A stretch of 64,000 nucleotides of DNA from Myxococcota bacterium (GCA_965223415.1 OZ245002.1:4800001-4864000), one strand, 5' to 3'. Shown: positions 15,035 to 23,271, numbered from the stretch's first letter. Numbers and translations are program-made. The notes: generated by a model not told the origin, from the letters alone.

Positions 15035-15111
15035 TGCGCAGGTTGTAGCGGGCCCGGGCCCCCTGTCGCGATCATCTCTACTACTGGTAGTGTCCTGCCC
15101 CGTGGGGGTAG

Positions 15112-15384
15112 TCATCTCGGGGCCATAATCGCCGCCCGGACGGCATCCTGGGCCGACTCGACCGGCGGCTCGTGCAGTACCGCCGTCACCTCCCCGTCCA
15201 CCTCCCAGGCGTAGCACCTGGGCGCCGTCGGGTGGCCCAGCAGCTCGAACACGAGCACCTCGCCCTCCCAGACGGTCTCGCCTTGGAAGGTCTCCACGAC
15301 GGGCTCCCGGCGCTCAAGGCGGCTCTTGGCGCCGTGGGTGGCCCGAATAGCCTGCTCGATCTGCGGGATCGGCAGCTCGTTCAT
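15112..15384 (-). CDS. Hypothetical passenger protein (90 aa)
   Basis: Globular ORF with E.FQGETVWEGEV..F..GHP...CYAW; stop lies just inside the left IR. Confidence 0.7.
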   Translation of the reverse strand: MNELPIPQIEQAIRATHGAKSRLERREPVVETFQGETVWEGEVLVFELLGHPTAPRCYAWEVDGEVTAVLHEPPVESAQDAVRAAIMAPR

Positions 15385-15386
15385 TC

Positions 15387-16193
15387 CTATTCGGGCCGGG
15401 GCGAGCGCTCTGCGATTGCAGCACGCACATCGATGCCGCCCTCGCCCTCGTACATGAGGTCGAAGATGTTGGCGGCCGTCTGGAGCCACTTGGCGCGTTC
15501 GGGAATCGGCCACTCGCTATCCGGCTCGGGCAGGGATCCGAGCAGACCCTGGATGAACGGATGCAAGCCGTCGGAACCATCGCCTCCGCCATGGTTCGGG
15601 TTCTCGTCAACCTCGTTCACCGGGGGATCATTCTGCGGGGTCGTCACTCCGGGGCGCACCAGCCGATTGCGTCCGTGCTCGAAGAACCCGGCCCGCTCCG
15701 CGGAGCGCTCCAGAACCTGGCGAGCCCGGCTCTTCTGCTTGTCCGCAACGCCCAGGCCTTGCATGTCGCGTTCGAGGGCAGCCGCCGGCGGAACGACGCC
15801 CCCGCTGTACTTGTCGTACACCTCGCGGTAGAGGGGCACCGAGAGGAACGCATCGACGAGCGCCGCTCGCGCCTGACTCGGGTCCATGGCTCGGCGCCCG
15901 AGGTCAGAGAGGCGGTGCATCCCGGACCCACTGCCACCCTCGATGAGGCGGAAGTGGCGCGCCGACGCGACCTGGGTGCGATACGCGCTGCTCTTCGGGC
16001 TCTGGTTCGTCCAGGGCGCGAGCTGGTCGTCGGAGCACTCTCCGCTCCCGACGTTCGAGTGGATCGCCTCGGCCATCTGAATCGCCGAGGCCAGATCGCT
16101 GTAGGGGAACGCGATCGTGGACCGCTGGCGCCCCCCGCCGTCTTCCTTCGCCGTCGCCGCATCCGCGACCGACGGGATCGAGTCTCCGCTCAT
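15387..16193 (-). CDS. Hypothetical passenger protein, probable winged-helix N-domain
   Basis: FPYSDL...SARHFRLIE...LSDLGR; C-terminal LHPFIQGLL.SLP...WLQTAANIFDLMY; RBS GGAGG. Confidence 0.7.
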   Translation of the reverse strand: MSGDSIPSVADAATAKEDGGGRQRSTIAFPYSDLASAIQMAEAIHSNVGSGECSDDQLAPWTNQSPKSSAYRTQVASARHFRLIEGGSGSGMHRLSDLGRRAMDPSQARAALVDAFLSVPLYREVYDKYSGGVVPPAAALERDMQGLGVADKQKSRARQVLERSAERAGFFEHGRNRLVRPGVTTPQNDPPVNEVDENPNHGGGDGSDGLHPFIQGLLGSLPEPDSEWPIPERAKWLQTAANIFDLMYEGEGGIDVRAAIAERSPRPE

Positions 16194-16480
16194 GCGAACC
16201 TCCCTTGCCGCAAGAGTGAATCGCGGCGTCCACGAATCTAGCAGACAAAGCGTGCTTGTCTCGCAGTCCGCAGTCGAAATGGTTGACAATCGCGGATTGC
16301 GACGCTCTACTTGTCTGACGCCCGTCCAGCATGCGGAGGAAAGCGGTGAGGAGGGTCTAGAGCGCCGGTGGCTGGAGTGGTCCACCCCGAACGGCGCGAA
16401 CACAAGTAACACCGCCCGGTATCCCGTCCTAGCTGGCCAGCCTTCGGGGATACCGGGCGGGAGGACCTGCCCGCCCCAGT

Positions 16481-16551
16481 GGGGCACGCAGGTTTGCCGG
16501 CAGAGGTCTTTACAGCCGTCTCCGTCGGGTTCGACTCCCGAGTGCTCCACC
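16481..16551 (+). ncRNA. tRNA-like structured RNA (Ala-type acceptor stem, no canonical anticodon arm)
   Basis: Acceptor GGGGCAC/GTGCTCC with G3:U70, discriminator A then CC; T-arm TCGGG-TTCGACT-CCCGA. Confidence 0.55.
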
Positions 16552-16568
16552 CGGGGCCTGGGCTCAGC

Positions 16569-16760
16569 TTAGCCAAGGTCCGCCCGTTCCAGCAGTACGG
16601 CCCTCGCCCAAGGTGAGAAGGCCATATCGGCCTTCTTGGCCGCCTTCTGGAGCTTCGCCCGGTCCGAAGCCCGCAGACGGATCGTGACTACTACGTCTTG
16701 GTCCTGCCCCTTCGGGAGCTTCGGTCTGCCCCTCGGGCGCTTCCTCGTTCTCGCCGCCAT
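16569..16760 (-). CDS. Small DNA-binding protein (AT-hook-like RPRGRPK plus ribbon-helix-helix-like region)
   Basis: VVTIRL...RAKLQKAA....FSPWARAVL; divergent from the transposase. Confidence 0.65.
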   Translation of the reverse strand: MAARTRKRPRGRPKLPKGQDQDVVVTIRLRASDRAKLQKAAKKADMAFSPWARAVLLERADLG

Positions 16761-16808
16761 GCGATTTCTTGTACCACATCAAATGAATATCTGCACTACG
16801 AAAAATCC

Positions 16809-16837
16809 TTGATTGCCCTTGATATTTGTAGTACATT
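16809..16837 (+). promoter_or_regulatory. Sigma-70-type promoter of the IS1-family transposase (probably leaderless)
   Basis: TTGATT-N17-TACATT, 6 nt before ATG 16844, in an AT-rich divergent spacer. Confidence 0.6.
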
Positions 16838-19168
16838 AAATCCATGGCGCGGCTCACCACGGACAAGAAGGCCACCATCCTCGGCGCCTTGGTCGAGGGC
16901 TCCTCGATCCGCTCGACCGAGCGCATGACCGGCGTCCACCGCGACACCATCTGCAAGCTCGTGGTGGAGACGGGCCGGAAGGCTGAACGGATCATGGCCG
17001 ACGAGATCCGCCACGTGCAGCCCCAGAGCCTCCAGCTGGACGAGATCTGGTGTTTCGTGGGGAAGAAGAAGGCCAACCTCAAGAAGACCGATGACCCGCG
17101 CACCACGGGCGACGCCTGGTGCTGGGTGGCCCTCGATCCCGATTCCAAGCTCGTCCCCCACCACCTGGTCGCGAAGCGCGAGGCTCGCGACGCCGTGCGG
17201 TTCACCCGCGAGCTGGCCCAGCGCGTCGAAGGCCGCATCCAGATCAACACTGACAAGCTCGGGGCCTACCGGCAGGCTGTCTTCGCGGCATGGGGCAGGG
17301 ACGTGGACTACGGCCGGATCGTAAAGCGGTTCTCAGGGGAGCCTCTGGACTCCGGTAGGTACTCGCCGCCGAAGGTGGTCGCGGTGGACCGGAGATCGTC
17401 TACGGAAACCCCGATCCAACCACGATCTGCACCTCCCATGTCGAGCGGAACAACCTCACGATGCGGATGGGGATGCGACGCTTTACGCGGCTGACCAACG
17501 GGTTTTCCAAGAAGGTCGAGAACCTCCGGGCCGCGGTGGCGCTTCACTTCTGCCACTACAACTTCATCCGCCGGCACGCCACCATCAAGACGACCCCGGC
17601 CCTGGCGGCAGGGGTCACGGACCACCGCTGGACCCTGGCCTCGGTGGACACCCAAAACCGGCCATAGAAGGACGTCTGAAAAGCGGCCATAGGGGCTGAC
17701 GCCCAGGACGTTGACGACGGCGAGGGACCTGCGATCCCCCGCCGCCATGGCGAACCTTCTGGGCAACGAGAAACGCGAGCAGATTCTGGCACTTGGCCGC
17801 CTCGGCTGGTCGCTTCGGCGGATCGAGGAGGCGACGGGCGTGCGCCGGGAGACGGCGAGCCGTTACCTCCGGGCCGCGGGGATCGCGGTGCGATCTCCTG
17901 GTCGCTGGGGGCACGGGGCCCCAAACCCGGCCATAGAGGCGTCCACCGACTCGAAGGCCCCGGCAAAAGCGGCCAAAGAGGCGTCCACCGATCCGGCCTG
18001 GCCGCCGATGCCGGGCCGGAGCCCCCAGGCCAGCGCCTGCGAGCCCTACCGCGAGTGGATCGAGGCGGGCGTGCGCCAGGGCCGGACGGCGATGGCGATC
18101 TGGCAGGACCTAGTCGATGACCACGGCTTCGCCTTCAGCTATGCGAGTGTGAAGCGCTTCGTGGCGAAGCAGCGAGCCGCGGCGCCGCGCGAGGCGCACC
18201 CGGTGATCGAGACGGCACCGGGAGAAGAGGGCCAGGTCGACTACGGCGACGGGCCGATGGTGCGGCATCCCGGGTCGGGGAAGTACCGGCGCACGAGGCT
18301 GTTCGTCTTCACCCTGGGCTACAGCCGCAAGTGCGTTCGGCTGCTCGTGTGGAAGTCGAGCAGCCAGGTCTGGTCGGAGCTGCACGAGAAGGCCTTCCGC
18401 CGGCTGGGCGGTGCACCGCGCACCGTCGTCCTCGACAACCTCAAGGAGGGCGTTCTCAAGCCCGACGTCTACGACCCCGCGCTCAACCCCCTCTACCGCG
18501 ATGTGCTCGCCCACTACGGCGTGACGGCGCTTCCGTGCCGGGTGCGCCACCCCGATCGCAAGGGGAAGGTCGAGTCCGGGGTGCGCCACGCGCAGCAGAA
18601 GGTCCGCGGGATGCGCTTCGAGTCGCTCGAGCAGGCCCAGGCCTACCTCGACCGCTGGGAGCGCCGATGGGCCGACACCCGCATCCACGGCACGACCAAG
18701 CGCCAGGTGGCGGCGATGTACGAAGAGGAGAAGCCGCACCTGCTCGGGCTTCCCATCGAGCCCTTCCGCTACTACCAGCACGGCGAGCGCACGGTGCACC
18801 TCGACGGGGCCATCGAGGTGGAGGGGGCCTACTACCACGCGCCGCCGGGCTGGCTGGGGCGGCGGGTGGCCGTCCAATGGGACGGGCTGCGGGTGCGGAT
18901 GCTCGATCTGCAGACGGGGGAGCTGCTGCGCGAGCACGTCCGCCAGAGGCGGGGGCGCCGCAGGATGCGGGAGGAGGACCGCCCGAAGCGGACGCCGGCC
19001 ACGACCCTCCAGCTGCTCGCGCGGGCCCGGCGCGCCGGCGTCCACGTGGGCGAGGTGTGTGAGGCGATCCATCGCCTGGACGGCGTGTCGCAGGACGTGA
19101 TATTCGAGGGCTAAGAGGACACGTAGATTTGCGCACCTCCTGTTGAGCCGCTGCGCGGCACGTTCCCC

Positions 19169-20455
19169 GTGAGGGAGGGGGGCGTGGGGCAGCGGCGACT
19201 GAGGCAGGAGGAAGTGATGACGATCGAAGTGCTGCACGAGCGGGGGTGCTCGAACCGGGAGATCGCCCGCCAGCTGGGGATCCGGGAGAGCGCGGTGCGC
19301 TACCGGCTGAAGCGGCTGGCGGAGGGGGCGCGAGACGGCCGGAGCGGGAAGCCCTTCCTGGCCGAGGCGGTCCACGAGGTGATCGCGGAGTGGCTGGAGG
19401 CGAGCTCGGGAGGCCGTGGCGTGAACCTGCAGGAGCTTCACGAGTTCCTGGTGGAGGAGCACGGGTACACGGGGAGCTCCAAGAGCGTGCAGCGGTACGT
19501 GCGGGCCCGGTTCCCGAGACCGAAGGTGCGGAGCCGGCGTCGGGTGGAGACACCGCCCGGGGCGCAGGGTCAGGTGGACTGGGGCGAGTTTCCGGGCGTG
19601 CGGATCGGGGGCCAGGAGGTGGACCTGCATGCCTTCCACCTGGTGCTCTCGCACTCGCGGCGAGAAGCGGTGGTGTGGTCGGAGCGGGCGGACACGCTGG
19701 CGTGGCTGGACGTGCACAACCGGGCCTTCGAGCGGCTGGGCGGGGTGCCGGCGGTGCTGCGGGTCGACAACGTGAAGACAGCGGTGGCGAAGGGGGCGGG
19801 GCCATGGGGGACGGTGAACCCGGCTTACGCGAGCTATGCCGGGGCCCTTCGCTTCCACGTGGACGCCACCCGTCCCCGCCAGCCGCAGGAGAAGGGGAAG
19901 GTGGAGCGTCGGATCCTGGGGCACCGGCGGGGCTTCGATCCGCGTCGGCGGGAGCACGAGAGCCTGGAGTCGCTGCAAGCGTGGACGGACGGCCAGGTGG
20001 CGCGCTCGAGCCACCGGCGGCAGTGCCCGGCGACGGGCACGACGGTCTTCCAGGCGTGGGAGGCGGAGAAGCCCCATCTCGGGGCCCTGCCCGAGCGGCT
20101 TCCCGAGCCCTTCGACCTGGCCGTGATGCGACGTGTCGGGCGCGACGCCACGGTGCGCTTCGAGGGGCGTACCTACAGCGTCCCCTTCCGCTTCGTCGAG
20201 CAGAGCGTCGAGGTGCGCGGCTGCGCCCGGCAGGTGCAGGTCTGGGCCGAGGGCTCGGTGGTGGCCGCGCACCCGCGCCACACGCGAAGCCGCCTGCTGC
20301 TGGACCCGAGCCACTACGAGGGGCCGAGCACGGAGGGGGTGGAGGCGCCCGTACCGCTCGGGCGCATGGGTCGACGCCTCCAGGAGCTGTGGGCGATGGA
20401 GCCGGAGCAGCGGCCGATCGACCTCTATGCCGATCTGGCGGAGGTGGCGCGATGA
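19169..20455 (+). CDS. istA: IS21 transposase IstA
   Basis: HTH, ETPPGAQGQVDWG, VDNVK, KGKVER; start could be slightly downstream. Confidence 0.9.
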   Translation: MREGGVGQRRLRQEEVMTIEVLHERGCSNREIARQLGIRESAVRYRLKRLAEGARDGRSGKPFLAEAVHEVIAEWLEASSGGRGVNLQELHEFLVEEHGYTGSSKSVQRYVRARFPRPKVRSRRRVETPPGAQGQVDWGEFPGVRIGGQEVDLHAFHLVLSHSRREAVVWSERADTLAWLDVHNRAFERLGGVPAVLRVDNVKTAVAKGAGPWGTVNPAYASYAGALRFHVDATRPRQPQEKGKVERRILGHRRGFDPRRREHESLESLQAWTDGQVARSSHRRQCPATGTTVFQAWEAEKPHLGALPERLPEPFDLAVMRRVGRDATVRFEGRTYSVPFRFVEQSVEVRGCARQVQVWAEGSVVAAHPRHTRSRLLLDPSHYEGPSTEGVEAPVPLGRMGRRLQELWAMEPEQRPIDLYADLAEVAR

Positions 20456-21252
20456 CGGCGGGAAACCCGGTGCCCAAGAAGGGCGGCAAGGTGGATCTCG
20501 ACCCGACCCGCGAGCGGCTCGTGCGCCTCGGCCTCCATCACGCGGCCGAGCACATCGGCGAGGAGCTGGCCCGAGCGACCAAGGACGACCTCGTGCCCCA
20601 CCGCTTCCTCGACCTGCTGCTCGAGGCCGAGCTGCAGCACCGCGAGGAGCGGAGGATGAAGACCTCGCTCCGTCTCTCGGGCCTTCCCACGGGGCAGACC
20701 CTCGGCAACTTCGACTTCGCCTTCCAGCCGAGTGTGGAGCGGAGCCGGATCGAGACGCTGGGCACCTGCGCGTGGATCCGGGCCAAGGAGAGTCTGCTGA
20801 TCCAGGGTCCGCCGGGAGTGGGCAAGACCCACCTGGCGGTGGCCCTGGGGGTGCGGGCCGTGGAGAACGGCTTCTCCGTGGCCTTCCATCGCCTCGAGGA
20901 CCTGCTGGCGGCCCTCAAGCGCGACGCCGAGATCAGCCCGCAACGGCTGCGGCGGCGCAAGCACATGAACGTGGCGCTCCTCGTCATCGACGAGGTCGGC
21001 TTCGAGCCCATGACGCGCCAGGAGGCGAGCCTCTTCTTCCGGCTCGTCTCCTACCGCTATGGGAGGGGCTCGATCCTGATCACCACGAACAAGGGCATCG
21101 CCGACTGGCCCGAGGTGCTGGCGGGCGACGAGGTGCTGGCCACCGCCATCCTCGATCGCCTCCTCCACCACAGCCAGGTGCTCAACATCTCGGGGCGGAG
21201 CTACCGGCTCCGCGAGCTCGAGCAGGCCGCGGGGCAAAGCGCCCAGCGTTGA
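20452..21252 (+). CDS. istB: IS21 helper AAA+ ATPase IstB
   Basis: FDFAFQP, GPPGVGKTHLA, LVIDEVG, AILDRLLHH, GRSYR; ATGA overlap with istA. Confidence 0.92.
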   Translation: MTAGNPVPKKGGKVDLDPTRERLVRLGLHHAAEHIGEELARATKDDLVPHRFLDLLLEAELQHREERRMKTSLRLSGLPTGQTLGNFDFAFQPSVERSRIETLGTCAWIRAKESLLIQGPPGVGKTHLAVALGVRAVENGFSVAFHRLEDLLAALKRDAEISPQRLRRRKHMNVALLVIDEVGFEPMTRQEASLFFRLVSYRYGRGSILITTNKGIADWPEVLAGDEVLATAILDRLLHHSQVLNISGRSYRLRELEQAAGQSAQR

Positions 21253-21629
21253 GGCCCCAGAGGGCGGCCTGACGGCCGTGCTCTCCTTCGGAGAGCGGAA
21301 GAGAAGAAGGAAGAACCGAACATCAACCCAGGGGGGTGCGCAAAACTAGCCGTCCTCTTAGCGCGCAAGAGATGACGTCCCTCGACACGGCGAGCCCGGG
21401 GTGCGTCGCATCCTGGGCGTGCTCTCCCTGTGCAAGCGCCACGGCATCCCTCGCGTCGACGATGCCTGCGCCACCGCCCTGGCCCTCGAGCTGCCCACCT
21501 ACGCGTTCGTCAAGCGCTACCTGGAGCGTCAGCCCGAGCTGCCGCTCTCGCTCAAGCAGGTGGACCCGCTCATCCGCCAGCTCACCCACTACCGCGATCT
21601 CATCGATCGCCGCACCGAGGAGACCTCTC

Positions 21630-22391
21630 GTGAATCTGACTGAACTCGATCCCGCACTGCGCAAGCTCCGGCTCTCGGGCATGGCCGAGCATCTGGAGAT
21701 GCGGCTCCTCGAAGCCCAGAAGGGCGAGTGGGCGGCCATCGACCTGCTCTCGGCGCTCGTCCAGGACGAGCTCGAGCGCCGGCAGGACCGACTGCTGGCC
21801 CGGCGCATCAAGCAGGCCCGCTTCCGCGACGCCAACCGGACCCTCAACGGCTTCGACTTCCGCTTCAATACGAAGATCGATCGCGCCCTGGTCTTCGAGC
21901 TCGCCACGGGCCGCTTCCTCGAGCAAGCCGAGGACGCTGTCTTCCTCGGCCCGCCGGGCACGGGCAAGAGCCATCTCGCCCAGGCGATCGGCCTCGCCGT
22001 CATCCACCAGGGCCATCGCGTCGCCTACCGCGAGGTCCACGTCCTCCTCGAGGAACTCGCTGATGCGACCCTCGACGGCACCCGCAAGGAGTACCTGGCC
22101 GAGATGGCGAGCGTGCCGCTGCTCATCCTTGACGACCTCGGCATGCGCAAGCTCCCCACCACGGCCGCCGAGGACCTGCTCGAGCTCATCATGCGCCGCT
22201 ACGAGCGCACCAGCACCCTCGTCACCTCGAACCGACCCGTCGACGACTGGGGCCGGCTCCTCGGCGACACGGCAGCCGTCACCGCCATGCTCGACCGCCT
22301 CCTCCACCACGGCCACCTGCTCAAGTGCGGACCCCGCAGCTGGCGCACCAAGAAGACCACGGCCTTGCCGAAGGAGGCTCCGGCGCGGTAG
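21630..22391 (+). CDS. istB: IS21 helper AAA+ ATPase IstB (outer element)
   Basis: LRLSGM, FDFRFN, GPPGTGKSHLA, LILDDLG, AMLDRLLHH. Confidence 0.9.
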   Translation: MNLTELDPALRKLRLSGMAEHLEMRLLEAQKGEWAAIDLLSALVQDELERRQDRLLARRIKQARFRDANRTLNGFDFRFNTKIDRALVFELATGRFLEQAEDAVFLGPPGTGKSHLAQAIGLAVIHQGHRVAYREVHVLLEELADATLDGTRKEYLAEMASVPLLILDDLGMRKLPTTAAEDLLELIMRRYERTSTLVTSNRPVDDWGRLLGDTAAVTAMLDRLLHHGHLLKCGPRSWRTKKTTALPKEAPAR

Positions 22392-22498
22392 AACCCCTCT
22401 GTCCTGGGCGCGGCCCTTTGGCCGCCTTTGAGACGTCCACCTTTGGCCGGTTTTCAGACGTCCACCGAGGCCCTGGAGGAGCTGGTAGAGGCGCCGTA

Positions 22499-22846
22499 CT
22501 AGCTCGCGAGCTGGCGGACTGATTCGTCCCAAGCACGCACCTTCTCCTTGGCGATCGGGCCGAGGTTCCGCGCGAGCATCGACATGATGGCGCTTAGGTG
22601 GGGCTTGGCGGCTTCGAAGAGCTCTTCTCCCGTGATTCCCCCCGGAATCAGGGCATCAGATACGGCCTGCTGGACGAACGACGGCATGTCGAGAATGTCG
22701 ATGCCAACGATGCGATCTAGGTCCTCAGAGACCAAGATTGTCATGTCCTCCAGCGGTACCGCTACCGTCTGGCCGCGCAGGTACTCTGAGATGGATACCT
22801 GGACCACGTCCGTATCAGGGCAGTAGATCAGCCTGATTTCGTCCAT
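22499..22846 (-). CDS. Putative antitoxin, DUF2283-like
   Basis: Acidic protein; Y.PDTDVV...IVGIDILD pattern; overlaps the end of the upstream gene. Confidence 0.5.
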   Translation of the reverse strand: MDEIRLIYCPDTDVVQVSISEYLRGQTVAVPLEDMTILVSEDLDRIVGIDILDMPSFVQQAVSDALIPGGITGEELFEAAKPHLSAIMSMLARNLGPIAKEKVRAWDESVRQLAS

Positions 22847-23172
22847 ACGACGTTCATCCTTCCTGCGGGGGGAATGGCCTTGTCGTAGGCGGTGACCAGC
22901 TCCCACCAGCGGGGCGGGTCGGCGTTCTTGGGACGCGGTTTTGCCGACACCATATGGGCGCGGTCCTCAGAGAATACCTTGTAGTAGTTCAAAGAGCCGT
23001 GGGCCACGTTCTCGCAGATGAAGCTGGGATCCTCGATGGTCTCCCGCATCCAAGACTGATCGGCCTCCTCATGCCTCTCCTTGATGTGGATATCCCACGT
23101 CCTCTGCCTGAATTTGACGGTGCGTCCCTGGGGATCGTTCACCTCGAAGATGAGAGGGTTTCTGACGGCCAT
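22828..23172 (-). CDS. Putative BECR-fold RNase toxin (PBECR2/DUF4258-like)
   Basis: DPQGRTV...W..HI.ERH...ETIEDP..I...YY...LVTAY pattern. Confidence 0.5.
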   Translation of the reverse strand: MAVRNPLIFEVNDPQGRTVKFRQRTWDIHIKERHEEADQSWMRETIEDPSFICENVAHGSLNYYKVFSEDRAHMVSAKPRPKNADPPRWWELVTAYDKAIPPAGRMNVVWTKSG

Positions 23173-23243
23173 CCCCGGGGGATATCAGCACCGGCGGACC
23201 AGCCAGTCAAGTCATTCCCTCCGGGGTAGGACACCACCCTACT

Positions 23244-23271
23244 ACTTTACATAATCTATCTTATCGGACAT
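23244..23271 (-). other. dif-like XerCD recombination site
   Basis: Minus strand ATGTCCGATAA-GATAGA-TTATGTAAAGT: 11-6-11 layout with the conserved TTATGT(A/T)AA XerD arm; KOPS polarity flips here. Confidence 0.85.

Follow-up and report, generated by a model that had tools for sequence, protein, structure and literature searches.

A clade of IS1-family transposons that appears to aim at the chromosomal dif site

Tn7, in its attTn7 pathway, inserts in a fixed orientation under the direction of the dedicated targeting proteins TnsC and TnsD, and the integrative mobile elements exploiting Xer (IMEX), for example the CTX and TLC phages, are integrated at dif by XerCD and lie flanked by dif-like sites. 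Members of the IS1 family of insertion sequences (IS) are described in ISfinder as having terminal inverted repeats that begin GGnnnTG and as producing target duplications of 8-9 bp; IS1 prefers AT-rich targets. Here we examined an IS1-type transposon with passenger genes that abuts the putative chromosomal dif of a Myxococcota bacterium (GCA_965223415.1), in a 64,000-nucleotide stretch of DNA that we call the window (bases 4,800,001-4,864,000 of a single 5.83-Mb contig, OZ245002.1, about 71% G+C; positions are counted from the first base of the window). A clade of the IS1 family appears to aim at dif, with element ends at the same spot in about a dozen related genomes, and the insert in the window is very probably a relic of targeted transposition, left by a 3.3-kb IS1-family element from this clade that inserts at a fixed place by dif.

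The closest described counterpart is the ISAjo2/ISAba32 subgroup (Harmer, Pong and Hall 2023, PMC10132070) of the IS1202 family (Siguier, Rousseau, Cornet and Chandler 2022, bioRxiv 10.1101/2022.12.17.520857). It was the only published IS homing to Xer sites returned by a search of the openly accessible literature, and the same search returned no paper connecting the IS1 family with dif or describing dif target specificity for that family. The two papers describe DDE-type IS that lie 5 bp from an Xer arm of dif or of a plasmid dif-like site and leave the site intact, target chromosomal dif as well, place several insertions at one site and carry no Tn7-type targeting proteins, all of which resembles the elements described below. 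The mechanisms proposed there are contact with a Xer protein or recognition of site architecture, and a safe-haven role is discussed. Our elements nevertheless fall outside the IS1202 family, with whose defining features they share only the 5-bp distance of the element end from the arm. The IS1202 transposase is an unrelated, TnsB-like protein of 441-457 aa, compared to an IS1-type protein of 273 aa here; IS1202 elements lie on the XerC side and ours on the XerD side; their 5-bp duplication is wholly outside the arm, whereas ours is 8 bp long and overlaps the arm by 3 bp. The orientation of IS1202 elements is fixed, while both orientations occur here, and the ends are TGT...ACA in that family and GG...TG in ours. 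Finally, IS1202 elements are 1.5 kb long, lack passengers and are hosted mainly by Acinetobacter plasmids, in contrast to elements of 3.3-4.2 kb with passenger genes in the chromosomes of a G+C-rich order.

The likeness to Tn7 lies in site-specific insertion beside a conserved chromosomal feature that is left undamaged and offers a safe harbour; unlike Tn7, the dif-associated elements are free in their orientation, and no Tn7-type targeting gene was recognised among the passengers examined. Like IMEX they exploit dif and the terminus region, but they have inverted repeats, a DDE transposase, an 8-bp duplication and a single dif, which places them outside that class. With known single-ORF (open reading frame), passenger-carrying members of the IS1 family they share a DDE transposase of about 273 aa with the PF03400 domain, GG...TG ends and an 8-bp duplication, as well as a second fixed small gene, a variable passenger slot and a length of 1-6 kb. 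The difference is one of target, in that the sister IS1 elements examined here were not at dif.

Ends of IS1-type elements beside dif

The right end of the element faces a 28-bp sequence at 23244..23271, which reads on the minus strand as the XerC arm ATGTCCGATAA, the centre GATAGA and the XerD arm TTATGTAAAGT. It is unique in the 5.83-Mb genome, where no other sequence fits the generic pattern ATAA-N6-TTATGTNAANT even when one mismatch is allowed; relatives from its genus, family and order, 18 genomes in all, carry it with 0-5 mismatches. The gene neighbourhood on its XerC side was syntenic with that of 6 of the 10 relatives compared, and the cumulative GC skew, though weak, reaches its global peak at the site. 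The genome encodes a XerC-like recombinase (251 bits) and a XerD-like one, which scores 328 bits where the cut-off of the model is 329.6. In the 193 genomes of the window's order that made up our survey set, a strict dif form, CCGATAAGATNNATTATGTNAANT, was present in 96, once per genome except in two genomes with two sites each, giving 98 strict dif sites. We named the arms from their resemblance to dif sites listed in PMC10132070, in which TTATGTTAAAT is the XerD arm. The 28-mer thus conforms to the definition of dif as a single, conserved 28-bp site with 11-bp arms and a 6-bp centre, in the terminus region of a genome that encodes XerC and XerD, and we infer that it is a functional dif with the arm identities given.

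Element ends were then sought beside dif throughout the survey set. The pattern of dif followed by 5 nt and GGNNNTG was present in 11 of the 193 genomes, from 11 genera, and at 11 of the 98 strict dif sites; a reversed-pattern control gave no match in the 193 genomes. When an IS1-type end, GGYRNTGKC, was allowed to begin at any distance from 0 to 14 nt beyond the XerD arm, the gap was 5 nt in all 11 cases and no end occurred at another spacing. The mirrored search on the XerC side, with gaps of 0-18 nt, found no end in any of the 193 genomes, and the XerC side is equally AT-rich. From base composition we estimated that chance alone would yield about 0.03 matches to the end motif, at any one given offset, among the 98 sites. 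Two further cases involve variant dif sites that the strict pattern missed: genome G004, from the window's genus, with the duplication AGTAGGAA, and G016, with a solo end. A metagenome element with both ends of the clade's type (L129) likewise abuts dif. The transposase itself was found by profile search in 13 of the 193 genomes, with 1-3 copies in each.

Exact 8-bp duplications at dif were present in seven complete elements, namely that of the window, two in G012 (E1 and E2), those of G113, G120 and G023, and L129. On the dif strand the duplications read AGTAGTAG in the window, AATCATTT in G113, AATAGAAT in G120 and AATGGATT in G023. In every one of them the first 3 nt are the last 3 nt of the XerD arm, while the other 5 nt vary between genomes and are often G+C-rich (e.g. 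ATGGC, GTAGC); the cuts are therefore fixed relative to dif and not by local sequence. The right copy in the window, at 23239..23246, illustrates this geometry: it ends in AGT, the three outermost nucleotides of the XerD arm, and leaves the 28-mer whole, just as an earlier reading of the window from its nucleotides only (the sequence-only reading) had described.

The same spot has been hit more than once. Next to the dif of G012 come ATTAG and then two different IS1-type elements in tandem, 3,374 and 4,220 bp long, with the 8-mer AATATTAG present three times, so one target was used twice. A second tandem junction was found in G062, where two elements abut across an 8-mer identical to the duplication on its dif side. 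Four elements have their transposase gene directed towards dif, and three have it directed the other way. Beyond the dif of locus L124 (G070:C2) lies a 22-bp remnant consisting of two abutting element ends, GGCACTGGCAC and GTGCCAGTGCC, flanked by the 8-bp duplication AGTTGAAG; this footprint is either an element reduced to both its tips or a minimal derivative.

Empty sites, which the sequence-only reading had suggested looking for in related genomes, do exist: several relatives have an unoccupied dif, including G003 and G005 of the window's genus. Genome G036 offers both states, in that contigs C35 and C70 (loci L260 and L128) are equal in dif and the next 5 nt, beyond which host DNA follows on one contig and an element end on the other. 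The sampled population may thus hold two alleles, or the bin may be mixed. No far end of the occupant was found within 25.6 kb, where only the one end and a scrap of the small gene described below are left. Overall, these comparisons show DDE-type transposition, with cuts staggered by 8 bp, as the apparent route by which the elements reach one fixed position beside the XerD arm; dif is kept, the site is reused and no rule of orientation is followed. This agrees with the sequence-only proposal of dif/XerD-directed DDE transposition, which gains support from the 5-nt spacing in 11 of 11 cases, the restriction to the XerD side, the exact and varying duplications and the reuse of the site.

Two separate observations concern the surroundings of dif. 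A xerD-like gene lies on the same contig as dif, 42-104 kb away, in five genomes (79 kb in G000, 104 kb in G012, 50 kb in G030, 75 kb in G031 and 42 kb in G182). At locus L108 (G002:C97, same genus as the window) about 2 kb separate dif from the conserved XerC-side gene, compared to a gap of about 100 bp in the window, and some other insertion may be present there on the XerC side of dif.

The transposase, its lineage and its sister elements

The best homologues of the transposase were 72% identical, 273 aa long and encoded by a single ORF, with the PF03400 domain. Most of the 120 homologues listed (47-72% identity) contained this domain and were named IS1 family transposase by their source. 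A 185-aa fragment from the window matched NF033558 (IS1 family transposase) with an E-value of 7.9e-15 and 55 bits, which falls below the cut-off of 100 bits, as a fragment would be expected to do. By these domain matches the predicted transposase is a member of the IS1 family. The other family traits agree: both ends in the window begin GGT(A/G)GTG, ends of this kind were present in 58 of 80 homologous loci on genome contigs and in all dif-associated elements, and the duplication was 8 bp in the window, in the same 58 of 80 genome loci and in 35 of 80 metagenome loci. Elements of the E. coli IS1 type have two overlapping reading frames joined by programmed -1 frameshifting; the homologues are single ORFs of about 273 aa and do not follow this arrangement.

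In a tree of 109 transposases, the seven dif-associated proteins and the 24 closest metagenome proteins formed one clade (Shimodaira-Hasegawa-like approximate likelihood ratio support of 100, branch length 0.42) that excluded all 78 other homologues, which come from loci not at dif. The window was represented in this tree by its 185-residue N-terminal part, and G004 and L129 were left out. The dif-associated transposases are 46-72% identical and belong to several sub-lineages whose end types differ. The end signature of the clade is GG..TG....CCCC...GGG, compared to ...TTTGA in sister groups. Seven residues and no insertion or deletion are specific to the clade's transposases, a difference that by itself explains nothing.

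The second fixed gene of the lineage encodes a protein of about 90 aa, and homologues of it were present in all seven transposase-carrying dif-associated elements and in 16 sister loci. The 89-aa protein of the window was modelled by AlphaFold2 with a mean pLDDT (predicted local distance difference test) of 93.4. Among 23 family members, Pfam gave a best E-value of 0.037, in one member, and NCBIfam gave no match. A Foldseek search against the PDB returned nothing at E <= 0.001, and in a wide structural search the best hit had a Z of 5.5 (periplasmic fragments of TraM/DotI), a value within the range of common arrangements. The versions from the dif-associated clade lack an insert of 6-8 residues seen in sister versions. 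We considered the small gene as the obvious targeting factor and dropped it in that role, as the 16 sister loci also carry it.

Passenger genes vary between elements. G113 and G023 both carry a Gp49-like protein with an HTH_3 protein, together with a DUF3467 protein, while element E2 of G012 carries an SDH/ClpP-like protease and element E1 a DUF5343 protein. In the passenger ORFs of the five elements examined, no Tn7-type or other recognisable DNA-targeting family was found.

Sister elements were examined at 80 genome-contig loci whose transposases were 46-59% identical to the reference protein. The 58 of these with GGT...-type ends and an 8-bp duplication were 1.1-6.0 kb long, and none was at a dif-like site with the right spacing; one had a poor match, with two mismatches, within 100 bp, and 57 of the 58 were scored as not at dif. 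At the 80 metagenome loci both ends were found in 35 cases, 34 of which were not at dif, bringing the sister elements placed away from dif to about 90. This metagenome scan returned mostly sister lineages, and only one clade member in it had both ends. A copy in G123 has sister-type ends and is not at dif. The sequence-only reading had named homologues inserted away from dif as the outcome that would count against dif-directed insertion. Such homologues are common among the distant sister elements, while within the clade they mostly do not occur, the exceptions being one copy each in G050 and G009 (see below).

The sister elements were inserted at sites ranging from 20% to 80% A+T. In 18 arms from 90 distinct sister sites, the word GTCAA stood precisely 7 bp away from the 8-bp duplication; four arms had it at 8 bp, compared to five at all other spacings from 0 to 25 bp combined. 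The sister lineages thus show their own preference in targets. Words such as TTGACA resemble the -35 boxes of promoters. We asked whether dif targeting is this same GTCAA-7-bp preference and rejected the idea: the spacing of GTCAA in the XerD arm does not fit, and targeted arms with GTAAA or GACAA exist. As a separate observation, two sister-type elements in different alphaproteobacterial bins (L055 and L071) occupy equivalent sites, with the duplications CGCGCTTG and CGGTCTTG, each followed by ...AGAACATA.CATGAACTATGTTC. This is a GAAC-N7-GAAC-like word that may correspond to the SOS box of alphaproteobacteria.

Anatomy of the insert in the window

The insert totals 8,153 bp, of which 4.8 kb are two nested IS21 elements. 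With the IS21 pair removed, the IS1-type element is 3,315 bp long and occurs in a single copy in the genome. The sequence-only reading had taken the full 8.2 kb for one IS1-type cargo transposon with a central IS1-like transposase. The IS1-type gene and the passengers on both sides of it hold up, while the size turned out to be that of a 3.3-kb element swollen by the nested IS21s, and the central gene, correctly placed in its family, is broken by a frameshift and by IS21.

The left copy of the target duplication, CTACTACT, lies distal from dif at 15078..15085 and is identical to that at 23239-23246, which confirms the perfect 8-bp duplication reported earlier at both flanks. The left terminal inverted repeat, GGTAGTGTCCTGCCCCGTGGGG, which shares its end type with the other dif-associated elements, follows at 15086..15107 on the plus strand, and the dif-proximal right repeat, which reads GGTGGTGTCCTACCCCGGAGGG inward, lies at 23217..23238 on the minus strand. 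The 17-bp imperfect repeats previously recognised by their start, GGT(A/G)GTG, are present, the sequence GGTAGTGTCCTGCCCCG at 15086-15102 matching the reverse complement of 23222-23238, GGTGGTGTCCTACCCCG, at 15 of 17 positions; extended to 22 bp, the two ends match at 18.

The small conserved gene (89 aa), at 15112..15381 on the minus strand, and the transposase gene diverge. The variable slot that separates them holds a passenger gene at 15387..16190, also on the minus strand, whose ORF may start as far upstream as 16550 and whose G+C at third codon positions (GC3) is coding-like. Homologues and their alignment place the first 185 codons of the IS1-family transposase gene at 16844..17398 on the plus strand. 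Three-frame translation located its continuation in the -1 frame (EIVYGNPDP...TDHRWTL) at 17392..17638 on the same strand, where it is cut by IS21 at 17638. The last 8 codons of the gene and its stop, EELVEAPY followed by a terminator, were split off by that insertion and displaced to 22477..22500 (plus strand), where they match the C-termini of homologues such as P0008. The one-base frame break, near 17392, falls within the catalytic domain and is absent from all homologues, which are single ORFs; we therefore read it as a mutation and not as a programmed frameshift. The transposase gene of the window is dead. Two further passenger genes, with coding-like GC3, lie between the displaced codons and the right end on the minus strand, at 22499..22846 (115 aa) and 22828..23172 (114 aa). 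No Pfam or NCBIfam family was matched by any of the three passenger ORFs in the window.

The IS21-family element A (17639-22470), with ends CCTCGGTGGACA..., is flanked by the 6-bp duplication CCCTGG at 17633-17638 and 22471-22476. Its left part, at 17639..19085 on the plus strand, contains an IstA-type transposase gene with rve and Mu-transpos_C_2 domains, and its right part, at 21388..22470 on the same strand, an IstB-type ATPase gene (IstB_IS21, E 1.8e-61). Element B is nested in it at 19086..21387 (plus strand), with istA and istB genes (rve, Mu-transpos_C_2 and IstB_IS21 domains, the last with E 1.4e-71), ends TGTCGC...CTCGACA and a 5-6-bp duplication. About nine further copies of element A are present in the genome, and element B has 18 other full-length copies at 100% identity and one interrupted copy at 99.9%. 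Both IS21 elements have been recently active, because nearly all their copies in the genome are 99-100% identical.

Directly to the left of the insert, from 12941 to about 15040 on the minus strand, runs a long ORF that is rich in repeats and in Ala and Pro and has a PEGA domain at its C-terminus; the start of this ORF is close to the insertion point.

Proposed target capture and alternative explanations

The sequences show the fixed geometry of insertion. The 8-bp staggered cut takes in the 3 terminal bp of the XerD arm together with the adjoining 5 bp, a placement from which gap repair rebuilds a complete dif with the element end 5 bp beyond. As dif thereby survives, the same spot can be hit again, giving tandem arrays. 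Any sequence is tolerated in the outer 5 bases, and either orientation of the element works. The copy in the window decayed after landing, through the frame break in the transposase gene, the entry of one IS21 element into that gene and the entry of the second IS21 element into the first. The benefit to the element would be a safe harbour, since every chromosome offers one such conserved site free of genes.

How dif is found is a separate matter. We propose that the transposition complex may be captured by dif with the Xer recombinases bound, either by touching XerD or by responding to distorted DNA at the outer margin of its footprint. We lean slightly towards such capture because the targeted arms differ in sequence, because several sub-lineages with different end types share the target, and because the lack of orientation bias fits a symmetric complex that senses structure better than an asymmetric reader. 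The main alternative, less likely but serious, is direct reading of the dif sequence, chiefly the XerD arm, by the transposase or by some other protein that the element encodes, with no Xer protein involved. The constant parts of the targeted dif sites, CCGATAAG...ATTATG.(A/C)AA.T, could serve such recognition, and the GTCAA preference of the sister lineages (18 of 90 sites) indicates that the family is able to read target sequence. On the other hand, the targeted XerD arms differ from one another at several positions (TTATGTCAAAT, TTATGTAAAGT, TTATGACAAGT, TTATGTCAATT and TTATGTCAAGT), the GTCAA spacing at sister sites does not fit the dif geometry, and an asymmetric DNA reader would more likely fix the orientation of insertion, as in the IS1202 family, whereas four elements point towards dif and three away from it. 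Two other approaches bear on recognition. Folding of the transposase alignment against the XerD alignment gave a score of 0.00, against a mark of 0.32, a result that counts neither for nor against binding. Likeness of the element ends to dif was considered as a mechanism and set aside, as it came down to a short TGTCC word in some end types.

The remaining alternatives deny that dif was targeted by transposition at all, and each fares much worse. All cases come from one order, as would be expected if a single ancient insertion beside dif in the ancestor of that order had been inherited vertically and lost in most lines. This history is very improbable: the duplications are exact at 8 of 8 positions within a genome while their outer 5 bases differ between genomes; the window's genus alone has two different duplications, AGTAGTAG and AGTAGGAA, and two genomes with empty sites; and the elements comprise several sub-lineages with 46-72% identical transposases, differing ends and passengers and a tandem pair at one site. 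The sequence-only reading had also allowed that the element simply picked the local AT-rich patch. By the IS1 preference for AT-rich DNA, it would have entered by chance the only such patch of a 71% G+C region, and dif and its surroundings are indeed AT-rich in a G+C-rich genome, but such a chance choice is hardly credible given a spacing of 5 nt in 11 of 11 cases and never of 0-4 or 6-14 nt, no end on the equally AT-rich XerC side in 193 genomes, no insertion inside dif, outer duplication bases that are often G+C-rich and sister sites of 20-80% A+T; because of this family-wide evidence of fixed spacing on one side, we exclude a chance origin. Many mobile elements use Xer recombination, yet it is equally implausible that this element carries its own dif-like site, or was integrated by XerCD as IMEX are so that dif travels with it, when the genome has one dif-like site, the far junction is the 8-bp duplication with no second dif, the element has IS1-type inverted repeats and a DDE transposase in place of a recombinase, and relatives without the element have the same dif in the same gene neighbourhood.

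Several observations weigh against targeted transposition to dif as a general account of the clade, or limit its reach. In 401 genomes from across the phylum, hits were confined to the window's order; homing to dif may be restricted to a narrow host range, or the general dif pattern may fail to catch the dif types of other orders. Metagenome bins in many pieces make up most of the genome set, and related genomes do not count as independent samples. Two clade members lie elsewhere: a complete clade-type element in G050, with the duplication GGGGAGCC, has no dif nearby, and in G009 a rearranged clade element has both ends but is flanked neither by a duplication nor by dif. Contig breaks cut off three copies, whose placement cannot be judged (G004:C117, G112:C7 and G112:C57), and the element of G064 is split over two contigs, the far flank of which does not repeat the expected 8-mer. 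Four ends on the dif side are solo, with no second end found (G014, G052, G036 and G016). The activity of the 28-mer as dif and the identity of its XerD-binding arm are read from sequence likeness. The site does not lie opposite the origin: with dnaA at 2.83 Mb and dif at 4.82 Mb, the two arms measure 1.99 and 3.84 Mb. Between about 5.75 Mb and 2.1 Mb the trend of the cumulative GC skew is reversed, which together with the unequal arms suggests large rearrangements (inversions) in an IS-rich genome or a problem of assembly.

The small conserved protein could take part in targeting, although its gene is not specific to the dif-associated clade. Building on capture at Xer-bound dif, we tentatively advance, at a little short of even confidence, a fuller scheme in which this IS1-family clade uses XerD at dif as a beacon, with no adaptor of the Tn7 kind. 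The transposase, of 273 aa, would itself bind the complex of Xer and dif and make its cut where the XerD footprint ends on the outer side, perhaps helped by its 89-aa partner. This would be a second, independent case of homing to Xer sites by a DDE transposase, on the XerD side and with no orientation rule, and so mirror-imaged with respect to IS1202.

Homing of a transposase to Xer sites had previously been described for the IS1202 family only, mostly on Acinetobacter plasmids. The apparent use of the opposite arm by an unrelated and smaller transposase, with another cut geometry and no orientation bias, provides a natural comparison for asking which feature of the Xer-dif complex attracts transposition. 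For annotation, elements abutting dif can be found simply by looking for a dif that is followed, after 5 nt, by GG...TG. The terminus can evidently gather passenger genes in tandem, toxin-antitoxin-like and protease genes among them, without losing dif, and the IS1 family, usually seen as loose in its choice of target, would contain a strictly site-specific branch.

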